A stretch of DNA of 64,000 nucleotides from Candidatus Woesearchaeota archaeon (GTDB taxonomy: Archaea; Nanobdellota; Nanobdellia; Woesearchaeales; UBA583). The stretch is taken from positions 552,713-616,712 of the forward strand of contig OZ242164.1 of NCBI GenBank assembly GCA_965205335.1, given 5' to 3'. The notes under the pieces were generated by a model. It was not told the origin of the DNA and searched no databases. It saw nothing but the letters and a program-made list of their open reading frames with translations. Positions 2,407 through 52,210 of the stretch are shown here, piece by piece; position 1 is the stretch's first letter, and the number at the start of each line of letters is the position of its first letter. A program made the translations under genes and the position numbers.

Positions 2407-3390
2407 TGTGTTGTCCTAATTCTTTTTCCCACTTTTATTATCTCCAATCATTTTTATAAACCTACCTAATGTCCATGGCATTAATTCACGCCAGAACACT
2501 TGTTCAGGCGTATCAAAATCCAAGCTACCATGCGGTCTATGATTATACCAGTCCATAAATTCATTAAATGTATTGAATTTCTGTCTATGAAGTTCATAGG
2601 TATGATTCCACTTCTCAAACTTACCATTGGTTTGAGGGTGTTTATATCTACATTTTGAATGTATAATTTCTAACCTGGCAAGAACTCTTTGGAACTCAGA
2701 TATGCCTTGCTGCTTACCCTCTTGCTTATTTGCATAAAACTGACTGCCTCTATCAGTCAAACAAACATCAATTGGTTTTATATGCAAATACGTTTTGTAA
2801 GCTTGTTTGATCAACCCAATATTGTGTTTTGCTTCTTCTTTTTTGAACTCACCCCCACAAAGGATTTTCCTTGATTTATCATCTAAGACTGCACACATCC
2901 ACATTTGCAAATGTGAATTATAATGCCAATCCATATGAACCATATCTAAAGACCATGGTTTTTCATAACGAATCCATGGCTTTCTTCTCTTTTGTTTTCT
3001 AGGATTGGCAATTGCTTTATTATTTGCAAGTAACACAATATGAACATAGTTATTTGCAATTTTAAAGTTTTCTTTCTTACGCAGATATTGACAAATGTAA
3101 TTTGCTCCAAACCCTAGTTTTGAATGCAAAGAAAGAATTCTTCTTTCTAAACTTCTAGGATAGACTCTTTTTGGTTTCATGCCATTCTTCTGTAAAACAG
3201 GAAGTAACCCTGTTTTCTTAAATTCTAAGAAAAGTTGATTAACTCTTCTTTTACTAATATTGAACTGCTTAGCAATAAAAACAGATGAAACACCTTTATT
3301 CTTACGCTTAATTATCTTTTCAATGTCCAAAGCATTTAGTTTCATAAAAGACTCAATTTCCAAGGTGGGAAATTTTTTGCGGACAATACA
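2407..3390 (-). mobile_element. IS481-like insertion sequence (rve-type DDE transposase, about 1 kb)
   Basis: Imperfect 10-bp TIRs TGTGTTGTCC (2407-2416) and GGACAATACA (3381-3390). The same 18-mer caaaaattacttacatac occurs exactly 1000 bp apart at 2389-2406 and 3389-3406, in direct orientation flanking the element (the right copy shares its first 2 nt, ca, with the 10-bp TIR); it may be a target duplication. Confidence 0.5.
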
Positions 3391-3411
3391 AAAATTACTT
3401 ACATACCACAT
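2416..3411 (-). CDS. IS481-family transposase (N-terminal HTH plus rve/DDE integrase core)
   Basis: HPQTNGKFEKWNHT is the rve signature, with D...D...E spacing. N-terminal HTH region KLNALDIEKIIKRKNKGVSSVFIAKQFNISKRRVNQLF. The true start may be the internal Met at about 3345, since the first 22 codons lie outside the TIR. Confidence 0.8.
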   Translation of the reverse strand: MWYVSNFCIVRKKFPTLEIESFMKLNALDIEKIIKRKNKGVSSVFIAKQFNISKRRVNQLFLEFKKTGLLPVLQKNGMKPKRVYPRSLERRILSLHSKLGFGANYICQYLRKKENFKIANNYVHIVLLANNKAIANPRKQKRRKPWIRYEKPWSLDMVHMDWHYNSHLQMWMCAVLDDKSRKILCGGEFKKEEAKHNIGLIKQAYKTYLHIKPIDVCLTDRGSQFYANKQEGKQQGISEFQRVLARLEIIHSKCRYKHPQTNGKFEKWNHTYELHRQKFNTFNEFMDWYNHRPHGSLDFDTPEQVFWRELMPWTLGRFIKMIGDNKSGKKN

Positions 3412-16571: not shown

Positions 16572-19500
16572 ATGGCTCAATATATTTGTAAACTAAAATT
16601 AAACTATATGGAACTAGTCAAAGATGATACAATTAAAAAAATCATACTAGTTTTAGTTCTTCTTTTTGGAGTATCCTTAGTTCTCGGAGCAACAAGCAAT
16701 GGCGAGCCAGATTTTTATGATGATCCCTATGCACCTAACTCTTATGATGATCCCTACTCTTCTGGATCTTATAATGATCCCCATACACCTAACTATGATG
16801 ATCCCTACACTCCTGGATTTTATGATGATCCCTATGCACCTGGCTATTATGATCCCCATACACCTAACCATGATGATCCCTATGCACCTGGCTATTATGA
16901 TCCCCATACACCTAACTATGATGATCCCTACACTCCTGGATTTTATGATGATCCCTATACACCTGGATTTTATGATAATAATTATGATGCTGTGGATGGA
17001 GTTTGCGGTGTAGATGTTGATACATGTAAAAACGGGACCTACAAGAGCCTTCTGGATAATTCAACCCATTATTTATGGAATTGCATAGGATTAAATGGTG
17101 GAAGTGATGCATCTTGCAGTAAACCAAAATCTTCTACTGATGGAGTATGTGATAATTCTGGAAGAAATAGATGTTCAAGTGGAAGTTCTAATGATGGAGC
17201 ACATGCAGATACAACTTGTGAGCATAGATGGCGTTGTGATGGAGTACGTGGAGGAAGTAATTCGGGTATGTGCAGTATAGTCAAACCAAGCCGAATTGTA
17301 AATGGAGTATGTGATAATTCTGGAAGGAATAGATGTTCAAGTGGAGATGATAATGATGAGGCTGTCACAGATACAACCACTCACTATAGATGGCGTTGTG
17401 GTGGAAGTTGTGGTGGAAGTAATTCAGGAACGTGTAGTTATCCTATACCACCATCTTCTATTGATGGTGTTTGTGGTTCAAGTGTTAATAGTTGTATTGA
17501 TGGAACTTTGAGTGATATTGGAGATAATTCAACCCATTATTTATGGAATTGCATAGGATTAAATGGTGGAAGTGATGCATCTTGCAGTAAACCAAAATCT
17601 TCTACTGATGGAGTATGTGATAATTCTGGAAGAAATAGATGTTCAAGTGGAAGTTCTAATGATGGAGCACATGCAGATACAACTTGTGAGCATAGATGGC
17701 GTTGTGATGGAGTACGTGGAGGAAGTAATTCGGGTATGTGCAGTATAGTCAAACCAAGCCGAATTGTAAATGGAGTATGTGATAATTCTGGAAGGAATAG
17801 ATGTTCAAGTGGAGATGATAATGATGAGGCTGTCACAGATACAACCACTCACTATAGATGGCGTTGTGGTGGAAGTTGTGGTGGAAGTAATTCAGGAACG
17901 TGTAGTTATCCTATACCACCATCTTCTATTGATGGTGTTTGTGGTTCAAGTGTTAATAGTTGTATTGATGGAACTTTGAGTGATATTGGAGATAATTCAA
18001 CCCATTATTTATGGAATTGCATAGGGTTAAATGGCGGAAGTAACGCTTCATGTAATGAAAGAATATCATTAAATGAAGATGATAATACCTCAAATAGAAA
18101 TAATTCTAATAATAATTCAGAAAAGATTAAATTAAATATTATTTTTGGCTCATATTATGATAAATTATACCGTCCTTCTCAAGAACATATTCAACTTGAA
18201 TTTTCACAGAGAAATCTCTTTATGAATTGCAATGAGTTTGAAATCGATATTACACTAAATAATGAGTTTAACTACAAATATGATTTTCAAAAAAGAGTGA
18301 TTCCTGTGCATCTTGGTATTGGTCTTTTCGACATAACACTTGATGAACTCAGAAATGAATCAGACACTGTTAAGTATAACGCAGTTCTATCTGGAAAATG
18401 TGAAAACAATCCTAACAAAAGAACAACACTCTTATCGCAAGAAGGAACATTTCAAATACCTCCTTTTGATGTTACCTATGATCGGCTTACTAATAAGATA
18501 AGAATTAAACTCCCTGGATATACCCATTTAGAAAATTATGATATATATATGTTTAATATTACATTACACAATAAATTTAGTCTCACGTCTATATTTGAAC
18601 AACTTTCAAATAGAAAAGAATCATTTATAGAATTTAGTGTTGAACCTTCATTATTAGATAAACTTAGAGAAGAACCAGACTTAGTTAAATACAATGCAAT
18701 TCTTTATGGAGGAAAAACTGTAGGAGGGGATGAAAACCATTTGAATTTCAGCAAAATACTTGGTTCACAAGAAGGACTGTTTCTAATCCAGTTTCTAACC
18801 CTGTATGGTGAACAGTATGGTGAAGAAGGATGTGGGGGATACTGTGATATAGGACCTTTTCTATGGATGGGTGATGGAGATCACTCAAAATATGACTTAT
18901 TTTTTGTATTTGAGGGCAAAACAGTTGAGGAAGTAGAGGACCAATTAGATAGACATTTTAGAAACGGAGATTATTCTTTGTTTAAAACAAACCCTTTTAT
19001 TGAACAAGAAGATAAGTTTAATATTTATTATGCAATAATTTCAGATGCATATGATTATAAACTGAATAAGGAATGTAAATGGGGAACTTATCCCAGACCA
19101 GATTCTCATTTCAACAACATCTTCGCTCAATATGATTGGATAGATGGAGAAGTTCATTTTAGTCAGAACCCATCTGTATGGCCTTATGCTAAGTATGGTA
19201 AGTATATTCAGATGTCTTATGCTTGTTACAGATCTGTTTGGGGTGTCAATTGGGATAAAACTTTTGTCCATGAATTTGGGCATCTGTTCGGCTCTTTGAG
19301 AGATGAATACATTTATCCTTCTTTATCAGATAATAATGCTCGTTCACATGACAGAAAAAATTGTCTTTACATAAGGGAACTAGTGGGTAAAAAATGTGAA
19401 AATGGATGTGAACTAAAAGGAACTCACAGATGGGAACATATTCCAAACTTTGATGGAGAAGTACTCTCTGGATGTAAACATCCTCTTCTTTTTAGGGGTG

Positions 19501-19616
19501 AATTTAATAGTATCATGAGAAACGAATTGCAATTTTATAAAGACACTTGGGCAGGTGGTTGGGGTCCAGTTAATGAGTATTATCTAAGAGAAAAGTTAGA
19601 GGAGAATTATAGTTAA
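16572..19616 (+). CDS. Large surface protein: signal anchor, Tyr/Pro/Asp-rich 9-aa repeats, duplicated Cys-rich modules and a C-terminal M64-like (IgA-peptidase type) zinc metalloprotease domain
   Basis: N-terminal hydrophobic segment; (DDPYxPGxY) x about 12; modules DGVCG...THYLWNCIGLNGGS...C; C-terminal VHEFGHLFGSLRDEY matches the M64 HEFGHxFxxLxDEY signature. Confidence 0.7.
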   Translation: MAQYICKLKLNYMELVKDDTIKKIILVLVLLFGVSLVLGATSNGEPDFYDDPYAPNSYDDPYSSGSYNDPHTPNYDDPYTPGFYDDPYAPGYYDPHTPNHDDPYAPGYYDPHTPNYDDPYTPGFYDDPYTPGFYDNNYDAVDGVCGVDVDTCKNGTYKSLLDNSTHYLWNCIGLNGGSDASCSKPKSSTDGVCDNSGRNRCSSGSSNDGAHADTTCEHRWRCDGVRGGSNSGMCSIVKPSRIVNGVCDNSGRNRCSSGDDNDEAVTDTTTHYRWRCGGSCGGSNSGTCSYPIPPSSIDGVCGSSVNSCIDGTLSDIGDNSTHYLWNCIGLNGGSDASCSKPKSSTDGVCDNSGRNRCSSGSSNDGAHADTTCEHRWRCDGVRGGSNSGMCSIVKPSRIVNGVCDNSGRNRCSSGDDNDEAVTDTTTHYRWRCGGSCGGSNSGTCSYPIPPSSIDGVCGSSVNSCIDGTLSDIGDNSTHYLWNCIGLNGGSNASCNERISLNEDDNTSNRNNSNNNSEKIKLNIIFGSYYDKLYRPSQEHIQLEFSQRNLFMNCNEFEIDITLNNEFNYKYDFQKRVIPVHLGIGLFDITLDELRNESDTVKYNAVLSGKCENNPNKRTTLLSQEGTFQIPPFDVTYDRLTNKIRIKLPGYTHLENYDIYMFNITLHNKFSLTSIFEQLSNRKESFIEFSVEPSLLDKLREEPDLVKYNAILYGGKTVGGDENHLNFSKILGSQEGLFLIQFLTLYGEQYGEEGCGGYCDIGPFLWMGDGDHSKYDLFFVFEGKTVEEVEDQLDRHFRNGDYSLFKTNPFIEQEDKFNIYYAIISDAYDYKLNKECKWGTYPRPDSHFNNIFAQYDWIDGEVHFSQNPSVWPYAKYGKYIQMSYACYRSVWGVNWDKTFVHEFGHLFGSLRDEYIYPSLSDNNARSHDRKNCLYIRELVGKKCENGCELKGTHRWEHIPNFDGEVLSGCKHPLLFRGEFNSIMRNELQFYKDTWAGGWGPVNEYYLREKLEENYS
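16720..16985. repeat. Imperfect 27-nt tandem repeats encoding DDPYxPGxY
   Basis: gatgatccctaYRcMcctggMtWttat units repeated in frame inside the large ORF. Confidence 0.6.
17055..17990. repeat. Two identical 468-bp tandem copies (17055-17522 and 17523-17990) with a diverged third start
   Basis: Sequence beginning ataattcaacccattatttatggaattgcatag recurs at 17055, 17523 and 17991; the ORF-track pairs 17069-17380/17537-17848 etc. are identical. Confidence 0.85.
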
Positions 19617-22789: not shown

Positions 22790-23422
22790 CTAACGTTCAA
22801 AATACGTAACATCAATTGCAAAAGCCATAGCAAGTATTATCATTTTTAAATTATTATCTGATGTATTCATAAAATCAACAACAAAATTATCTGCATCAGA
22901 AATAAGTTCCTTCCCACCAGACCACTTCTTTGTAATCCTTGCAAACTCCCTATTATTTTCCATAAAATTAAATGTCCAGGGGTGAACTGCCTTTGACTCA
23001 CATATAAAAGTCTTTGAAGAATTAGACATTCTTATCTCCAATACTTTTCTCAGAAAAGTAAATTTACCCTTAACATCTGCTATAACTTCTCCCTTCTCAT
23101 TATAAATCTTCATCTTAGGCACAAAGAAATAAAAAGGTCTTTCAACCGACACACAAATATCTCTCTTATCGTCCATTACATTGATTTTCGTAGGTCTGTT
23201 TCTGCCGCCAAAATACCGAGCCGCAAAAGAACTATCCTCAAAAGCATAAGAAAAACTCCCTCCTCCCTCTGTCTGAATCTCATACTTATTTCTTGTCTCA
23301 AAGCCCGTAAAAATCTCTGCCATTTCCTTTATTTGCTTAACTATCAATTTATTATAAGGTATCTCCATACCCACTTTCATAGAAGAATATTTATAATAAT
23401 TTTCTGTCACGATATAGTACAT
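22790..23422 (-). CDS. Phospholipid scramblase-family (tubby-like fold) protein
   Basis: C-terminal ISDADNFVVDF...KMIILAMAFAIDVTYFE closely mirrors the eukaryotic PLSCR C-terminal signature FTDADNFGIQFP...KAVMIGACFLIDFMFFE. Confidence 0.6.
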   Translation of the reverse strand: MYYIVTENYYKYSSMKVGMEIPYNKLIVKQIKEMAEIFTGFETRNKYEIQTEGGGSFSYAFEDSSFAARYFGGRNRPTKINVMDDKRDICVSVERPFYFFVPKMKIYNEKGEVIADVKGKFTFLRKVLEIRMSNSSKTFICESKAVHPWTFNFMENNREFARITKKWSGGKELISDADNFVVDFMNTSDNNLKMIILAMAFAIDVTYFER

Positions 23423-25778: not shown

Positions 25779-25906
25779 GGCTCTGTCCGAAAATTCAAGA
25801 GAACTTAAAATATTGTATCAGTAAAGCAATTTTTGACAAATTATTTTTTTCTTTGACTGAATATAGTTAGCATAGATTTTGGAAAAACCAATTTCCGGAC
25901 AGATGG
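25779..25906. mobile_element. MITE copy A (about 128 bp, TIR GGCTCTGTCCGAAAATT family)
   Basis: Left end ggctctgtccgaaaatt, right end ccggacagatgg (degenerate); flanked by GAATTC on both sides. Confidence 0.6.
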
Positions 25907-25914
25907 ACGAATTC

Positions 25915-26046
25915 GTGGCTCTGTCCGGAAAGTCAAGAGAGCATAAAATATTATATAAATAAAACAATTTTTGACAAATAATTTCTTTCTTTGATTGAAC
26001 ATAACTAGCATAGATTTTGAAGAAAACAATTTCAGGACAGAGCCAC
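25915..26046. mobile_element. MITE copy B (about 132 bp), tandem to copy A
   Basis: Left TIR GTGGCTCTGTCCG, right TIR CGGACAGAGCCAC, flanking GAATTC duplication (25909-25914 and 26047-26052). Confidence 0.6.
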
Positions 26047-26093
26047 GAATTCCAAAGTTTTATAAACAACTTGCTGTTAAAACTTCTTATTTA

Positions 26094-27170
26094 ATGGACC
26101 TAAAATTCGGGCTAATTAGTCTGGGGAGTACCTCCTCTAAGATGATTTTGGAAGAAGCAAAAGCTTACTTTGATGTAGTAGATAGTATTGACCTAAAAAA
26201 GATTGAAATCAAAATTAACGATAGTATATCAGTATTATATGATGGAGAATCTCTCCCTGAATATGACTGTCTATACTTTAAGGGGAGTTTTAAATACTCT
26301 ACACTTCTTTTCTCTCTCTCTGAGATCTTTAAGGATAAATGTTATATTCCTATCAGACCAAACGCTCATATAATTGCTCATAACAAATTTATGACTCATC
26401 TTCTCTTATCTTCCGATAAATCCCTTAAAATGCCTTCAACTTACTTTACAGCAAAGATTTCCGAAACTAAAGCTTTCTTAAAAACTCTTAATTATCCTAT
26501 TATTATGAAATTTCCTTCTGGAACTCATGGTAAAGGAGTTATCTTTACAGAAAGTTATTCAAGCGCCAGTTCTATGATTGATGCTTTAGATGTCTTCGAT
26601 CAGCCTGTAATCATTCAGGACTACGTTAATATAAAGTCAGATCTAAGAATTATTGTTGCAGGAGATAAAGTCGTTGGAGCTATGAGGAGGATTGCAAAAG
26701 CCGATGATGTCCGTGCAAATGCTCATGCAGGAGGCAATGCTGAACCCTATTTACCAACTCCTGATGTCAAAAGAATGTCAATTAATGCTGCAAAAAAAAT
26801 TGGAGCTGATATTTGCGGTGTAGATATTATAGAAACTGATTATGGACCTCAGATTCTTGAAGTAAATACTTCACCTGGGCTTCAGAAGATTACAGAGGTT
26901 ACAAAGAAAAACATAGCAAAGGAAATTGTTGAGTTCCTATATGAGAAAACAAAGGAAAGAAAAGAAAGAAAAGACAAAACCATTGCAAAATCAATGGTTG
27001 GAGAATTGGGAATTGATGAGATTGGAATTCGTGAACTTGAAGGAGATATTAGAATAGTTAACGGAAAAATTGTTCTGCCTGAATTTGTATCAAAGATGAG
27101 TGATTTTAGTGATGGGGAAAGCGTTAACTTAAAAGTTTCAAAAGACAGTGTAACAATTGGCAAAAACTAA
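26094..27170 (+). CDS. ATP-grasp ligase of the RimK/LysX/CofF/MptN type (amino-acid or glutamate ligase) with a C-terminal extension
   Basis: FPSGTHGKGV, IIQDYVN, DLRIIVAGDKVVGAMRRIAKADDVRANAHAGGNAEPY, ICGVDIIETDYGPQILEVNTSPGL. Start set at Met 26094, 28 nt downstream of TATA aaagttttataaa. Confidence 0.65.
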   Translation: MDLKFGLISLGSTSSKMILEEAKAYFDVVDSIDLKKIEIKINDSISVLYDGESLPEYDCLYFKGSFKYSTLLFSLSEIFKDKCYIPIRPNAHIIAHNKFMTHLLLSSDKSLKMPSTYFTAKISETKAFLKTLNYPIIMKFPSGTHGKGVIFTESYSSASSMIDALDVFDQPVIIQDYVNIKSDLRIIVAGDKVVGAMRRIAKADDVRANAHAGGNAEPYLPTPDVKRMSINAAKKIGADICGVDIIETDYGPQILEVNTSPGLQKITEVTKKNIAKEIVEFLYEKTKERKERKDKTIAKSMVGELGIDEIGIRELEGDIRIVNGKIVLPEFVSKMSDFSDGESVNLKVSKDSVTIGKN

Positions 27171-27538
27171 TCTTTCAGAACACCTTTAAGCGTTCCTGAA
27201 ACTTTAATTATTTCTATTTTTGCTGGAGTTTTATCTATTCTCTGAATCAGAGAAAGAACTCCAATTAGTTTCTCCTTTGTTCTCGTATCAACTTTTATAA
27301 CTAATTCCTGATTTTTTTCATTAAACTTATCTCTAAGAATCCAAAACCCTGATTTTGATATCTCAATACTCCCTAAAAACATTATAACCTGCGATAATAT
27401 GCTCTCTGATAGTTCCTTAAATTCAAATTTCTTATCAGAAACTATTTTTGCTCTTATGAACCTCTTCTTTGTTCTAAGCGTTGGCGAGAGAGGTTTTAGT
27501 TTTGAATCATAAGAAGCATTCTTAGTTTTATTTAACAT
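27167..27538 (-). CDS. RNase P protein subunit Pop5 (Rnp2)
   Basis: LKPLSPTLRTKKRFIRAKIVSDKKF resembles the archaeal Pop5 N-terminus (LPPTLR.KKRYI.FEV); 123 aa. Confidence 0.55.
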   Translation of the reverse strand: MLNKTKNASYDSKLKPLSPTLRTKKRFIRAKIVSDKKFEFKELSESILSQVIMFLGSIEISKSGFWILRDKFNEKNQELVIKVDTRTKEKLIGVLSLIQRIDKTPAKIEIIKVSGTLKGVLKD

Positions 27539-28678: not shown

Positions 28679-29116
28679 ATGATGAAAAAACACAAATTCA
28701 AAGGAATAGAATATAAAAGCACAGGTGAGTATGAAATTGCTAAATTTCTAACAAGTCTTGATTTAGAATTTGAATATGAATTTCCAATAGCTATAGTTGA
28801 TAATAAAAAACCAAAATTATGGTACCCAGATTTCTATCTAAAAGAATACCAAGTAGTGATAGAATATTTTGGAATGTACAATTATAACAAAGTGTATAAA
28901 GACAATGCAGAACATAAAAAAGAGATATACAAACAATGTGGAATTCAGTTTGTTGCAATATATCACATAAGTAAAAATTGGCAGGAATATCTACTAAAAA
29001 CAATTCTTACGCATCAGGAAATAAAAGCCAAAAAGATGACATCCATCTTAGATAAATTTGAGAAGAAAAATAAAGGTTTTGCAAAAAAATTCAGATGGGA
29101 TTTCTGGAAGCATTAG
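28679..29116 (+). CDS. Hypothetical protein with a PD-(D/E)xK-like nuclease motif
   Basis: E...YPDFYL...VVIEYFGMYNYNK has spacing consistent with E-PD-ExK. Confidence 0.35.
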   Translation: MMKKHKFKGIEYKSTGEYEIAKFLTSLDLEFEYEFPIAIVDNKKPKLWYPDFYLKEYQVVIEYFGMYNYNKVYKDNAEHKKEIYKQCGIQFVAIYHISKNWQEYLLKTILTHQEIKAKKMTSILDKFEKKNKGFAKKFRWDFWKH

Positions 29117-29438: not shown

Positions 29439-29528
29439 GGAATATTTGCATAAATGAATTTAAACAATTTTGATAATATTGATTTCACAAAACCTTATAA
29501 ATCAAAATTCATTACTAATTAGTTAAGA

Positions 29529-30521
29529 GTGGTGTCTTTGTTAAGGGAGAAAACTAACAGTTCAGAAAACCATAGACTGGAACAAAGATTAGAAGGTTGG
29601 AGAAGATTAGACTATTTAGGAAGAGAATACGTTAGATTATACAAAGATTTAGTCCATGAAGATGAGCAAGGTAATCCATTACCATTTGAAGAAACCCCTA
29701 AAATGAGATCTACTAAAGACGAAATTCTCACAAAAATTCAGCGTTATTTACATTATCTAATGAGGGAAATTGTTTTCAAAGGCAAAACAATAAATCTGAG
29801 AGGTAGAGAAGTTGGACTTTCCCTATTTGGTAATCCAGAATGGGTGAATAATAGAGAGTATCTTCTCAATGAAGTAATTCAGGATGCAAACTTAGCAATT
29901 CTTGAAAATTTACATAAATACAATCCAGAATTTGCCTTCTCACAATATGTTTCTCTTATGTTTGTAACAGGTGTTAAAAGATATATGAATAAAAGAAGAG
30001 GTTTAATCAGAATCTCCATTCATAGACAATCACCTTTTTTTTGGAAATGTCTAAGCAAATCAAACGGATTAGAAGATTTTGTTAGATTAGTTAATAAAGA
30101 AACAGGATTGAAGGATAATGCATGCTGTGCTATTTACTTTGGATTAACAAATGAGTATGAACCTCTCTTTGAAGAACCCCAATATAAACAAGAAGATGGG
30201 AGTACTGCCCCTCTATCTTATGAGGAAAGCCTTGCAGATGAATCCTTATCAGGAAGAGACCCTTTAAAAATATTTGAGAAATTTGAACTTCGTGAAAATA
30301 CCAGATATGTTTTAAGTGAGACACGACTAACCAAACGTGAACGAGATATAATCTCTCTTCATTTTGGATTAGACAATAATAAAGAGTTAACTTTAGAAGA
30401 AATTGGAAAAAGGTATGGTGTAACAAGAGAGGCAATCCGACAGATTGAAGCGGAAGCATTTAAAAAATTACGCAGAAGAACTCTTAATACCCCTCACCTT
30501 AAAGAATATCTTGGTTCTTAA
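29529..30521 (+). CDS. Sigma-70-family RNA polymerase sigma factor-like protein (regions 2 and 4)
   Basis: LNEVIQDANLAILENLHKYNPEFAFSQYVSLMFVTGVKRYMNKRRGLIRISIH aligns with sigma region 2 (LIQEGNIGLMKAVEKFDPE...TIRIPVH). DIISLHFGLDNNKELTLEEIGKRYGVTREAIRQIEAEAFKKLR is a textbook region 4.2 HTH. GTG start lies 26 nt from TATA ccttataaatc. Confidence 0.65.
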   Translation: MVSLLREKTNSSENHRLEQRLEGWRRLDYLGREYVRLYKDLVHEDEQGNPLPFEETPKMRSTKDEILTKIQRYLHYLMREIVFKGKTINLRGREVGLSLFGNPEWVNNREYLLNEVIQDANLAILENLHKYNPEFAFSQYVSLMFVTGVKRYMNKRRGLIRISIHRQSPFFWKCLSKSNGLEDFVRLVNKETGLKDNACCAIYFGLTNEYEPLFEEPQYKQEDGSTAPLSYEESLADESLSGRDPLKIFEKFELRENTRYVLSETRLTKRERDIISLHFGLDNNKELTLEEIGKRYGVTREAIRQIEAEAFKKLRRRTLNTPHLKEYLGS

Positions 30522-31706: not shown

Positions 31707-33845
31707 CTAAACTTTTTTAACCAAATCCTTATAATACATAAGTCCCAACTGAGGTCCTTTCTTTGTCACAACATTGGCGCTATTTCCCGCTGCATACTCC
31801 ATTGCCTTTTTAATTGTACATCCCTTTGAATAAAAATACATAAAAGTTGCTCCAAAACAATCCCCTGCTCCTGTTGTATCAACAATCTTATCTGGCTTGA
31901 ATGCAGCAGTAAAATACTCCATATTCCCATCATAAGCGTAAGAACCATTCGCTCCATCCGTTACAATAACCAACTCACACGCAAGTTTCTTCAAACCCCT
32001 AAGAACAGAACTAAAAGACTGCTCCTTTCCCAAAATCTCACAAGCCTCCTCATAATTCAAAATAATAACATCACAAATCCTAATTAAATCCATTAACTTA
32101 GGTTCAGTGTGAATTAAAGAAGGACTTGCTCCATAAAAAATCTTTGCTCTCTTATTTCTCTTCTTTATAATCTTAGCAAGCTCTAACTGAGTCTTAAAAC
32201 TCTCCCCACTAAGAGCTGTAAAATAATAAAAATTTGAAGAAAATTTATTATAATCAAAATTATCTAACTCTAAAAACTGATTTGAACCCCTATAAGTAAT
32301 AATCAATCTGTCATTATCTTTTGTATCCAAAAGAATTGACTTGGCAATTGGTTTTTTTGTCTTCTTTGACTCAATTAATCTCACATTCTCTATATCAAGC
32401 CTCTCCTTTAAAAAATCAAACTCATTATATGAAATTTTTCCTAAATAGGCAACCCTTGCTCCCAACCTTGCAAGACAAACAGACATATTAACTCCCCCCC
32501 CCCCAAGTTCTTTCTTAAAATCATCCTTAACCCTAACTTTCTCACCAATATACAAATTTGAGAACTTCTCATTAACACTAACCACTGTATCCAAAACATT
32601 TGAACCCACTACTATAAAATCCTCTCTTCCTTCAAACTTAGAACATAACATCTCAAGAACTTCAATTCCAAAAAGTCTCTCATTTGACAAAAACTTAACC
32701 AAAGCCCCTCCAGCAAGACTAACATACGAAAACTTATCCAAACACTTGAACTTCTCTGCAACAGTTACACTATGCCCTCCTCCCACAAAAGAAAACCCCT
32801 TTGAATTTACAATCTCTCTTAGAATGCTCTTAGTTCCAACATCACACCCTTTAAGCTCAAAATTCCCGCAAGGCCCCTTCAAATAAATACCTCCTGCCTG
32901 CCTTAACAATAACGAATACTTTCTTATAGTATCACTTCCTATATCATTTATCATATTCTTATCCAAAAACTTCCTATTACTACCCAACCCACTTGCTTTT
33001 ATCTCAACCCTTCTTCCATTCAAAACTAATGCAACATCACTTGGAAATAAAATCTTCTTTGGATACTTTCTAAGAAGTCCCCTTAAATCCTTCTCAACTG
33101 ATAAATAATTATTCTCTCTTAGAAAATCCAGTTTCTTCCCCAGATAAAAACCATTAACATGCAGTGCAATCTCCCCAATAACACCTGTTAGCAAAATACA
33201 ATCAACTTCCTTTAACCTAAGAGACTTCTCAATCAAAGGAATTAAATCATCAGGCTTAGCTCCTCCAAAAACATATACTAATGGCCTATGAACTAATGAA
33301 ATACTATTTAACCCTCTAAGTTCTCTATCCATTAACCTTCCTGCAATTACTGGAATCTTTGAAAAACCAACAACAGACGTCTGCTTCCTATGACATACAG
33401 AAAACGCATCAAAAACATAATAATCGAAAACCCTCTCAAGCGACTTTATAATATTACCCTTCTTATTTACATCCAACTCATCATCATAGAACCTCAAATT
33501 CTCAAGCAAAAGAATCTCCCCACATTTTAGAGATAAAATCCTATCATCTCTTCTCTTATCATCCAAATCACAAAAACCAATCTTCCTATTAATACACTTT
33601 GAAATCAGCTTAGAATGCTGCTTTAAAGAAATACAATCCACCTTCCCAGTCCTGCCCTGATGCGCCAAAATAACTACTCTTGCTCCCTTACTTACAAGTT
33701 CATCTATTGTCGAAGACGCCTTAACAATTCTCTCATTTAGAACCACCTTTGACTTAATAACAGGAGAATTAATATCAATCCTTAGCCCTACAATCCTATC
33801 CTTTAAATCAAAACTATCAAGAGTGAAATAATTATGCATAAACAC
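31707..33845 (-). CDS. pgk: Fusion protein: phosphoglycerate kinase (N-terminal, about 400 aa) plus PfkB-family carbohydrate or nucleoside kinase (C-terminal, about 300 aa)
   Basis: PGK: RIDINSPV...VVILAHQGRTG...LLLENLRFY. PfkB: GGGGVNMSVCLARLG ... DTTGAGDCFGATFMY...GNSANVV. Confidence 0.75.
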   Translation of the reverse strand: MFMHNYFTLDSFDLKDRIVGLRIDINSPVIKSKVVLNERIVKASSTIDELVSKGARVVILAHQGRTGKVDCISLKQHSKLISKCINRKIGFCDLDDKRRDDRILSLKCGEILLLENLRFYDDELDVNKKGNIIKSLERVFDYYVFDAFSVCHRKQTSVVGFSKIPVIAGRLMDRELRGLNSISLVHRPLVYVFGGAKPDDLIPLIEKSLRLKEVDCILLTGVIGEIALHVNGFYLGKKLDFLRENNYLSVEKDLRGLLRKYPKKILFPSDVALVLNGRRVEIKASGLGSNRKFLDKNMINDIGSDTIRKYSLLLRQAGGIYLKGPCGNFELKGCDVGTKSILREIVNSKGFSFVGGGHSVTVAEKFKCLDKFSYVSLAGGALVKFLSNERLFGIEVLEMLCSKFEGREDFIVVGSNVLDTVVSVNEKFSNLYIGEKVRVKDDFKKELGGGGVNMSVCLARLGARVAYLGKISYNEFDFLKERLDIENVRLIESKKTKKPIAKSILLDTKDNDRLIITYRGSNQFLELDNFDYNKFSSNFYYFTALSGESFKTQLELAKIIKKRNKRAKIFYGASPSLIHTEPKLMDLIRICDVIILNYEEACEILGKEQSFSSVLRGLKKLACELVIVTDGANGSYAYDGNMEYFTAAFKPDKIVDTTGAGDCFGATFMYFYSKGCTIKKAMEYAAGNSANVVTKKGPQLGLMYYKDLVKKV

Positions 33846-36374: not shown

Positions 36375-37223
36375 TCAATTAATACTTTCTATTTCAACAG
36401 GCTTTGTACGATAAGTAACTAAAAACTCTGACTTATCGTACAACAGGTTAGCAGTAATTCCCAAGTTTTCCATTTCCATAATAAGAACGCAAATATTATG
36501 GCATACAATTTTACATAACACTTCGTTTACCTGTGCTGTCCTGTTTTTAGATTTAACATTATCCCCAAACTTCTTTTTCACCATACTAAATGTAGTTTCA
36601 ACATTACTTCGTTTATGATAATGTTCCATAAACTCATCCTGATTATAAAGGAAATAATGTAATGCTTTCTTCCAGATTATACCTCGTTTATGTTTGGATT
36701 TTTCATTTACATTATTTTTGAAAGGAATATAAGGAACTGCTCCTACTTCATTGATTGCTTCTAAGTTTTCCTTACTGATATACGCCTTATCTCCTGAAAA
36801 CTCCTCTATTGTGAAGACTTCATTAGTCTTATCCAGTAACTCTTTTAACTGTGGGCTGTCGTGGTCAAATTCAGACGTTATTTTAACTGCTGGAATGATG
36901 TTAGTATGAACTCCTGAAACTATGTGACATTTAACCCATTTCTTATATCTGTCCTGTGTGGAATGCTTATACTTATTCCAGTTCTGCACTATTGACGTAC
37001 CAAATCCCGAACTGTCTATTGCAAAATTGGTTTCAACTTCTTTCAATGGCTGTGATGTAATCTTAATCAGGTTGTGCAGAATCTCTGAAACCTCTTTTTT
37101 ATTAAAGTAAACTTTAAGTGTTGTAAATGGAACTTCCTTAGTTATGTACTCAAAATCCTTGCTTAACTGCATATCACAGGTAAATCTACGCCCAGAAACC
37201 CCTGAATACACTTTAAATATCAT
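36375..37223 (-). CDS. IS transposase orfB (DDE_Tnp_1 / IS4-IS5-like catalytic domain)
   Basis: DSSG...GDKAY...YHKRSNVETTFSMVKKKFG (Y-x2-R-x3-E-x6-K signature). The ORF reads through the left TIR into flanking DNA for its last 8 codons. Confidence 0.75.
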   Translation of the reverse strand: MIFKVYSGVSGRRFTCDMQLSKDFEYITKEVPFTTLKVYFNKKEVSEILHNLIKITSQPLKEVETNFAIDSSGFGTSIVQNWNKYKHSTQDRYKKWVKCHIVSGVHTNIIPAVKITSEFDHDSPQLKELLDKTNEVFTIEEFSGDKAYISKENLEAINEVGAVPYIPFKNNVNEKSKHKRGIIWKKALHYFLYNQDEFMEHYHKRSNVETTFSMVKKKFGDNVKSKNRTAQVNEVLCKIVCHNICVLIMEMENLGITANLLYDKSEFLVTYRTKPVEIESIN

Positions 37224-49872: not shown

Positions 49873-50391
49873 TTATGGAGTACATATACTAAAAGTCGGT
49901 TGGTTGGTAGAGTTCCATGCACTAGCTCCTCTACTAAAATTACCACAATCTATTACTCTATTTGTATTCCATAAACTTATATCTCCATTAAATGAAGTTG
50001 CACCATCAAACATACTTCCCATATCTGTAGTACCTGTCAAATTCAATACATCGGTAGCAGACACATCTAAATTAGAACACCCTTGAAAATAACCTCTATA
50101 ACCGCCAAGTCTTAATGAACCCCAATTCTTAATATCAATGATTTTATTCTTATCTCCCGAATCACTGAATCTAAAACCTATTATATCCCCTTTAATTCTT
50201 ATTTTATATTCTCCCTCATGCGGATATGAATGCATTACTTCTGACTGATTCCATTGAGTGATTCTATAATGAGTTCCATCCCCCCCAAAAAACCGTAAAA
50301 TCATATCTTCCTGAAGGAGATAAAGGTAATTTAATTGAATGACGATTTGAACTTCCCAAACTTGTTTCATTTGTTCTCCAGACTGAAACAA
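49873..50391 (-). CDS. DUF285 (BspA-type surface repeat) domain protein fragment
   Basis: TDMGSMFDGATSFNGDISLWNTNRVIDCGNF matches the DUF285 repeat. The N-terminus carries T7/G7 homopolymers (FFGGDG), so it may be a frameshifted continuation of the upstream ORF. Confidence 0.45.
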   Translation of the reverse strand: MFQSGEQMKQVWEVQIVIQLNYLYLLQEDMILRFFGGDGTHYRITQWNQSEVMHSYPHEGEYKIRIKGDIIGFRFSDSGDKNKIIDIKNWGSLRLGGYRGYFQGCSNLDVSATDVLNLTGTTDMGSMFDGATSFNGDISLWNTNRVIDCGNFSRGASAWNSTNQPTFSICTP

Positions 50392-51981: not shown

Positions 51982-52081
51982 ACGAAAAGATATTTTTATT
52001 AATTTATAAACTCTCCTATATCCGAACTAAGAATATAATATTGGGGCTTTACTTTCTAACCTCACACATAAATTCTATTAG

Positions 52082-52210
52082 TGGCTCTGTCCGAAAATTC
52101 AAGAGAACTTAAAATATTGTATTAATAAAACAATTTTTGACAAATAATTTTTTTCTTTGATTGAAGATAGTTAGCATAGATTTTGGAAAAAACAATTTTC
52201 GGACAGAGCC
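52082..52210. mobile_element. MITE copy C (TIR GGCTCTGTCCGAAAATT family)
   Basis: tggctctgtccgaaaattc ... aattttcggacagagcc, flanked by CTATTAG at 52075-52081 and 52211-52217. Confidence 0.65.

Follow-up and report, generated by a model that had tools for sequence, protein, structure and literature searches.

A divergent sigma-70-family protein of a woesearchaeote and its subfamily in archaeal genomes

A 64,000-nt stretch of the genome of a Candidatus Woesearchaeota archaeon (assembly GCA_965205335.1, contig OZ242164.1, positions 552,713 to 616,712 of the forward strand; hereafter the window) encodes a protein of the sigma-70 family. The open reading frame (ORF) is located at positions 29529–30521 of the plus strand, begins with GTG and encodes 330 amino acids; codons 2 and 4 are alternative starts. 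A TATA box, TTATAAAT, was found at 29495–29502 (+), with 26 nt between the box and the GTG. The two motifs on which a first-pass annotation had based its proposal of a sigma factor, LNEVIQDANLAILENLHKYNPEFAFSQYVSLMFVTG...GLIRISIH and LTLEEIGKRYGVTREAIRQIEAEAFKKLR, are present in the translation exactly as described (aa 113–165 and aa 287–315, respectively). The N-terminal part is a two-helix module (29559–29780, +; aa 11–84) with the motifs GW..L..LGREY and a long second helix. This module is specific for the subfamily described below and occupies the place of sigma regions 1.2 and 2.1. It is followed by regions 2.2–2.4 together with an IRISIH motif (29853–30032, +; aa 109–168) and by a sigma3-like domain of three helices (30033–30149, +; aa 169–207), which ends with the subfamily motif A..IY..LT..Y. 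Alignment, structure model, and conservation profile delimit a region 3.2-like acidic linker of 37 amino acids (30150–30260, +; aa 208–244), in which D237 is nearly invariant in the subfamily alignment. The C-terminal sigma4 domain with regions 4.1–4.2 (30261–30482, +; aa 245–318) harbors a helix-turn-helix carrying VTREAIRQIEAEAFKKLR.

Pfam alone came close to describing a protein with a generic helix-turn-helix, the outcome that the annotation had named as speaking against a sigma factor. Sigma70_r4 was matched (E = 4e-17, 61.8 bits, cutoff 24.1), Sigma70_r2 stayed below its threshold (14.8 bits, cutoff 24; aa 109–156), and the Pfam families r3 and r1_2 were not detected in the protein. Three other lines of comparison led to the sigma family. 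The NCBIfam model TIGR02937 (sigma-70 superfamily) scored above its cutoff (66 bits, cutoff 42.9) over aa 108–317, spanning regions 2–4, and phmmer aligned aa ~108–328 to regions 2.2–4.2 of SigA/RpoD sequences of the PDB with E-values down to 3e-16. An AlphaFold2 model built from a 57-sequence alignment reached a mean predicted local distance difference test (pLDDT) score of 84.9 and was used instead of a single-sequence model, which was discarded (pLDDT 46). In a Foldseek comparison of the predicted model with the PDB, the top 50 matches were all bacterial sigma chains (SigA, RpoD, RpoS, SigB), each with a probability of 1.0, and the alignments spanned 270–390 columns of full-length sigma chains. 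The N-terminal helices of the model (11–41 and 57–84) are followed by a hairpin, the region 2.2 helix comprises residues 109–126, and the helix of regions 2.3–2.4 residues 137–156. The sigma3-like bundle consists of helices 169–177, 181–192, and 196–207; the acidic linker (208–244) and sigma4 (245–318) follow.

The protein is a complete member of the sigma-70 family, comprising sigma2, a sigma3-like domain, a 3.2-like linker, and sigma4. Its domain order and folds are the same as those of the bacterial group 1 and 2 sigma factors (RpoD/SigA, RpoS), in contrast to which it lacks region 1.1 and carries the subfamily-specific N-terminal module. Archaeal regulators with a sigma4-like or LuxR-like fold, such as PDB 8hno ("archaeal transcription regulator") and the Tfx and HTH_10 proteins of the survey PMC5413776, consist of the helix-turn-helix only. 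Identity with such a regulator was rejected because sigma2, the sigma3-like domain, and the linker are present in the window protein.

An exhaustive search among 1.84 billion representative proteins revealed no relative with more than 50% sequence identity. Below an E-value of 1e-30, only the query itself was found, and 747 proteins scored below 1e-10, mostly via region 4. The subfamily surfaced by this search, whereas word-indexed searches started from the protein alone, the family alignment, or the N-terminal alignment yielded little more than the query itself and a few of the members. Ten proteins aligned with the query from end to end at 22–29% identity (P0009, P0016, P0018, P0019, P0032, P0075, P0107, P0013, P0011, and P0155), and four further members (P0127, P0043, P0100, and P0052) were recognized by a family hidden Markov model (HMM). 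The subfamily hence covers 15 clusters, namely the query and fourteen other clusters formed at 50% identity, all of which align with it over the full length. A family HMM built without the query aligned it over aa 19–327 with 176 bits, compared to 200–387 bits for the other members. An HMM of the N-terminal ~90 residues, likewise built without the query, matched the query with 24.9 bits (E = 1.4e-7); among the bacterial sigma factors in the set, 8.6 bits was the highest score. In a neighbor-joining tree of 141 sequences, calculated from 226 columns in common with bacterial sigma factors (regions 2–4), the 15 members formed one bipartition with a bootstrap value of 67/100. The query belongs, as a divergent member, to a sigma-like subfamily associated with archaea. 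A scan of genome contigs with a region 4.2 pattern kept 80 loci with titles of bacterial genomes, which matched regions 2–4 only. One of the loci (L001) seemed to encode a full-length member, but was rejected as an ordinary RpoD.

The genomic context was readable for six members, and the neighboring genes were unrelated between them. P0032 (locus L081) is encoded near genes for PCNA, a beta-CASP RNase, a diphthamide synthase, and prefoldin, and P0009 (L084–L086) near those for ribosomal protein S6e, LSM, FtsZ, and translin. P0013 (L087) is accompanied by an S-layer protein, MetRS, and an MJ1341_C-domain protein, and P0127 (L092) by a DUF460 protein, HisRS, and a faint match to Top6B. The neighbors of P0052 (L094) are GyrB, ScpB, ExoVII, and a beta-CASP RNase. 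Every contig of the subfamily long enough to judge is archaeal; this covers L081, L084–86, L087, L092, L094, and the window, while the contigs of the remaining members (1–4 kb) are too short. P0009 corresponds to NCBI HLC81629.1, annotated as [quoted passage not shown], so that at least one member is labeled Candidatus Nanoarchaeia. Among the member loci, the GC content varies between 0.27 and 0.49, and TATA boxes precede several of the sigma-like genes at −29 to −34. On L094, half of the genes have TTTATAAA at −29 to −33, which is the archaeal leaderless layout. A conserved sigma homolog of several domains is hence present, intact and with archaeal promoters, in several lineages of archaea. 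Rfam searches detected no taxonomically helpful RNA genes on the related loci. The beta-CASP RNase (~445 aa; RNase J/aCPSF-like) adjoins the sigma-like gene divergently on L081 (8481–9815) and is located about 4 kb from it on L094 (9078–10418); this recurrence may be due to chance.

One member differs in its domain composition. P0052 (L094: 3226–4761; GCA_041598975.1, JBFHXM010000005.1) ends with the C-terminal domain of the bacterial RNA polymerase alpha subunit (alpha-CTD; PF03118, 33.6 bits, cutoff 23.8; aa 412–474). In bacteria, alpha-CTD reads the UP element beside sigma4. Since the contig shows the archaeal leaderless TATA layout, the fusion unites two bacterial promoter-reading modules in a single polypeptide of an archaeon. 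In P0173, an unrelated protein, Sigma70_r4 occurs together with three alpha-CTD repeats and a HARE-HTH match below threshold (19 bits, cutoff 25.9).

The conservation of single residues was analyzed in the numbering of E. coli sigma-70. In its regions 2–4, the reference fragment used agrees closely with RpoD-type sequences such as P0012. The residues that read the −35 element are kept in most members (R584 in 13 of 15, E585 in 13, R588 in 14, and Q589 in 12), and the window protein has all four equivalents in the segment VTREAIRQ. Region 4.2 is near the primary-sigma version in most members, and the subfamily consensus retains the C-terminal tail KALRKLRHPSR, a typical feature of primary sigma factors. 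At the region 2.2 positions D403, Q406, E407, and N409, the window protein has E, Q, D, and N, respectively. An acidic residue occupies the D403 position in each of the 15 members and the Q406 equivalent is kept in nine, while N409 is replaced, mostly by A, in every member except the query (14/15). The position of Y430 is aromatic throughout (15/15), with Y in the query. The residues responsible for reading and melting the −10 element (W433, W434, R436, Q437, and T440) are not conserved in the subfamily; the query carries L, M, V, T, and K, respectively. Of the sigma signatures that the annotation had claimed, region 4.2 is thus nearly that of the bacterial group 1 and 2 factors and the region 2.2 helix is recognizable, whereas the −10 recognition and melting residues of regions 2.3–2.4, present in those groups, are lost.

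The same pattern appears in the mean pairwise identity within the subfamily, which is highest in region 4.2 (0.51), followed by region 4.1 (0.37), the 2.1-like helix (0.33), region 2.2 (0.30), regions 2.3–2.4 (0.26), and the linker (0.23), and lowest in sigma3 (0.19). In bacterial primary sigma factors, region 2 ranks with the best-conserved parts. On this basis, the order of conservation in the subfamily is reversed.

A sigma factor is a hallmark of bacteria, and the gene might have been contributed by a bacterial fragment joined to an archaeal contig during assembly or binning. The surroundings of the gene speak strongly against this. The window encodes aEF-2, ThrRS, L15e, S8e, Pop5, a Kae1-type TsaD protein, TFE-alpha, an archaeal flagellin, and TrmB, which bears out the earlier assignment of the contig to the archaea, and archaeal genes flank the sigma-like gene on both sides (Pop5 at 27167–27538; a phosphoglycerate kinase-PfkB fusion, aEF-2, L15e, and S8e). 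Exactly this protein is on record for a contig of 1,199,749 nt, homologs are found on independent archaeal contigs from other samples, and mis-binning has been excluded for such genes (Castelle et al., 2021; PMC8204110). The GC content of the window is ~0.30 throughout, without a step near the sigma-like gene, and neither GC content nor codon usage shifts across 27.5–31.7 kb. The gene itself has a GC content of 0.331 (mean 0.312) and a GC content at third codon positions of 0.21. AGA accounts for 21 of its 31 arginine codons, and its synonymous-codon likelihood is inconspicuous (z = −0.15, leave-one-out, relative to 55 other ORFs of the window).

The promoter is of the host type as well. TTATAAAT is also found 28–48 nt upstream of the starts of eight other genes in the window, and the pattern TTTATA[AT]A occurs in 66 copies (31 expected), 42 of which are located in the intergenic 14% of the window. 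The position of the box at the host's usual distance indicates that the gene carries the host promoter layout and implies a leaderless or very short-leader mRNA. The view of the annotation that the gene is an old resident was supported by the codon usage and the TATA box. Archaeal setting, native composition, and host-type TATA box together argue for an established resident. Contamination or chimerism is very unlikely, and an artificial join of bacterial and archaeal DNA is hardly credible. We have high confidence in the sigma-70-family identity and the native status of the gene.

Several features in the vicinity could be taken to mean that the gene recently arrived with a mobile element, a virus, or an island of bacterial origin, as cargo without an integrated role in the host. 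Transposase or integrase genes are present at 2416–3411 (−) and 36375–37223 (−), one with an rve integrase core and one of the DDE_Tnp_1 type; neither adjoins the sigma-like gene. The 145-aa ORF just upstream (28679–29116, +) matches PD-(D/E)xK nuclease domains of candidate defense proteins weakly (PADLOC HEAT_CxxC_PDDEXK, E = 1e-8), phage endonuclease PHROGs are weakly matched too, and no Pfam family scored above threshold for this ORF. A repeat resembling a miniature inverted-repeat transposable element (MITE), which likewise fits a mobile origin, occurs at 25779–26052. The best single match of the window protein in NCBIfam and PADLOC is the sigma part of MzaA from the MZA anti-phage system, obtained via sigma regions 2–4 (80 bits and 65 bits, respectively). 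MzaA, however, is longer than 680 aa and possesses a large N-terminal part that the window protein lacks, and the 80 bits amount to a tenth of the 800-bit cutoff and stem from the sigma part only. Identity with MzaA was therefore rejected. The four flanking proteins that were scanned gave no match to the PADLOC models of the MZA system. A viral origin was also dismissed, since a viral contig collection contains no relative and the sigma factors of phages match the structure less well than those of cells. Both codon usage and GC content are native, the promoter is of the host type, and the archaeal homologs are located among housekeeping genes with no mobile or defense neighbor in common. We regard a recent cargo gene as quite improbable.

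The annotation had also described the neighboring genes as bacterial in flavor and suggested an acquired island. The DsbA-like protein and the endonuclease/exonuclease/phosphatase (EEP) hydrolase were confirmed by Pfam, the PD-(D/E)xK assignment received the weak support given above, and the 2Fe-2S ferredoxin-like protein was not confirmed by Pfam. The island itself did not hold up: the six other members have different, mostly housekeeping neighbors, none of them common, and the composition is even across 27.5–31.7 kb. The absence of any neighbor conserved between members indicates that there is no island, no operon partner, and no candidate for an anti-sigma factor.

The MITE-like element is about 138 nt long with terminal inverted repeats of 23 nt (GAATTCGTGGCTCTGTCCGGAAA). 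The two copies at 25779–26052 are arranged in tandem, a third copy is located 26 kb away (52078–52200), and all of them are intergenic. TTGACA is part of every copy, and two of the three intergenic TTGACA sites of the window are due to the element. Further observations concern genes elsewhere in the window. An ORF of 712 aa (31707–33845, −) is an unusual fusion of phosphoglycerate kinase (PF00162, aa 9–387) with a PfkB-family sugar kinase (PF00294, aa 423–700). A 210-aa protein that matches the phospholipid scramblase family (22790–23422, −; PF03803, E = 5.5e-35), which is mostly eukaryotic, is encoded between the SecF and Kae1 genes. The 1014-aa ORF at 16572–19616 (+) has no Pfam match and contains large internal DNA repeats, namely a 468-nt unit in 2.1 copies with 99% identity (17055–18041) as well as units of 162 nt and 123 nt; its product is probably a repetitive Cys/Gly-rich surface protein. 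A 172-aa protein (49873–50391, −) matches DUF285 (PF03382), a repeat family originally reported from Mycoplasma, and likewise has a bacterial flavor.

On balance, the observations are best explained by a native member of the sigma-70-family subfamily that would act as a sequence-specific transcription regulator. As to the mechanism, the sequences point tentatively to a DNA-binding regulator derived from a sigma factor. The subfamily would go back to a primary-like (group 1/2) sigma factor of bacteria, acquired by these archaea in the distant past. The highly conserved helix-turn-helix of sigma4 would still read a −35-like DNA element, while sigma2, deprived of −10 recognition and melting, may survive as a protein-contact module. 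Basal initiation, melting, and the choice of the start site would be left to TBP, TFB, and TFE at TATA promoters. The assignment as a regulator is supported by the higher conservation of region 4.2 compared to regions 2.3–2.4 and sigma3, by the kept −35-reading residues next to non-conserved −10 residues, and by the fusion of P0052 to a DNA-binding alpha-CTD. Selection would act mainly on the helix-turn-helix of sigma4, so that the protein would bind a −35-like element and regulate transcription.

Further support comes from the promoters of the window, which offer no counterpart in the form of sigma-70-type sites. Pairs of −35 and −10 boxes of this type are not enriched (4 in the window, 15.7 expected), and the genes use TATA promoters, a setting that differs from that of the bacterial group 1 and 2 factors. 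Upstream of the family genes, no set of sigma-70-type promoters was found, only archaeal TATA boxes.

Several points weigh against a role as a regulator of this kind. A DNA target did not emerge; TTGACA is underrepresented in the window (37 sites, 50 expected), and only three of the sites are intergenic. Sigma2, sigma3, and the 3.2-like linker have been retained at identities of only 22–29%, although a pure helix-turn-helix regulator would not need them. Together with the acidic residue at D403, the frequently kept Q406, and the near-invariant D237, the retained domains hint at a partner of the RNA polymerase type. Bacterial extracytoplasmic function (ECF) sigma factors, which lack W433 and W434, still melt DNA, so the loss of these residues is no proof of a lost sigma function. 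Finally, the query is the most divergent member of the subfamily, and the bootstrap support for including it is moderate.

The retained domains would be accounted for by a functional sigma-type factor that serves the archaeal RNA polymerase in initiation or selectivity, a role we nevertheless consider unlikely. Sigma2 would bind to the coiled-coil of the Rpo1 clamp, the homolog of the bacterial beta-prime clamp helices, and the 3.2 linker and sigma4 would occupy sites otherwise used by TFB; the enzyme would be redirected to a special class of promoters, or TFB would be blocked. The layout and spacing of sigma2, sigma3, linker, and sigma4 are kept across 15 deeply diverged clusters, and the query retains the core-binding equivalents of region 2.2 (D403 as E, Q406, E407 as D, and N409) and an acidic residue at the near-invariant linker position; the primary-sigma tail is kept in the subfamily consensus. 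An anti-sigma partner was found neither at the window nor at the member loci nor in the earlier survey (PMC8204110), which also fits a factor of the polymerase. On the other hand, the residues for −10 reading and melting are lost, 14 of the 15 members have replaced N409, and the window shows clear TATA promoters without an enrichment of promoters of the −35/−10 type. The archaeal RNA polymerase is not known to possess the flap-tip helix by which the bacterial enzyme holds sigma4, and TFB uses the dock and the exit channel of the archaeal enzyme. The docking site of sigma2 has a homolog in the archaeal clamp coiled-coil, which also serves as a site for Spt5 and TFE. The subfamily might dock to the archaeal RNA polymerase via this universally conserved coiled-coil, either as a promoter-selectivity subunit or as a competitor of TFB/TFE, a rather unlikely outcome in our estimate. 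If true, it would represent a hybrid initiation system in DPANN archaea.

The polymerase addressed might also be a bacterial one. Within the window, no bacterial RNA polymerase gene was seen, nor are there RNA polymerase genes to pair with the sigma-like protein. DPANN archaea are symbionts that depend on other cells, and region 4.2 hardly differs from its counterpart in bacterial primary sigma factors, both of which would suit an effector acting as a sigma mimic or competitor on the bacterial RNA polymerase of a partner or host. Neither a signal peptide nor a secretion-associated neighbor is evident in the sequence, however, and the residues for opening a bacterial −10 element are lost. In addition, the known hosts of DPANN archaea are themselves archaea (PMC8204110). 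Such an effector is highly improbable.

The occurrence of sigma-70 genes in DPANN genomes, especially in Woesearchaeota, has been reported before (fam00359; Castelle et al. 2021, Front Microbiol; PMC8204110). In that study, mis-binning was excluded, no anti-sigma factors were found, and the mechanism was stated to be unclear. The first-pass annotation therefore implied more novelty than is warranted, since these genes are already published and NCBI already names HLC81629.1 as a member of the sigma-70 family; the locus itself is not a discovery. Our literature searches found no functional or structural study of DPANN sigma-70 proteins. Like the published genes (fam00359, compared by description, and HLC81629.1), the window gene is located on a genuinely archaeal contig without an anti-sigma partner. 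With HLC81629.1, the window protein shares 29% identity over aa 9–310 (E = 2e-28). Unlike the published proteins, it has no relative above 50% identity and is the most divergent of the 15 clusters. The window gene is a new, unusually divergent member of a known, uncharacterized type of gene. The N-terminal module private to the subfamily, the missing −10 and melting residues next to the kept −35 residues, and the alpha-CTD fusion may be new details.

Sigma factors define transcription initiation in bacteria, whereas archaea initiate with TBP, TFB, and TFE. An intact and conserved sigma homolog in archaea hence poses a real mechanistic question, namely which role a sigma protein plays without a bacterial polymerase. 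The findings described here narrow this question to a clade of its own with a private N-terminal module, in which the −35-reading helix is almost unchanged, the −10 and melting residues have been dropped, and one member is fused to alpha-CTD.

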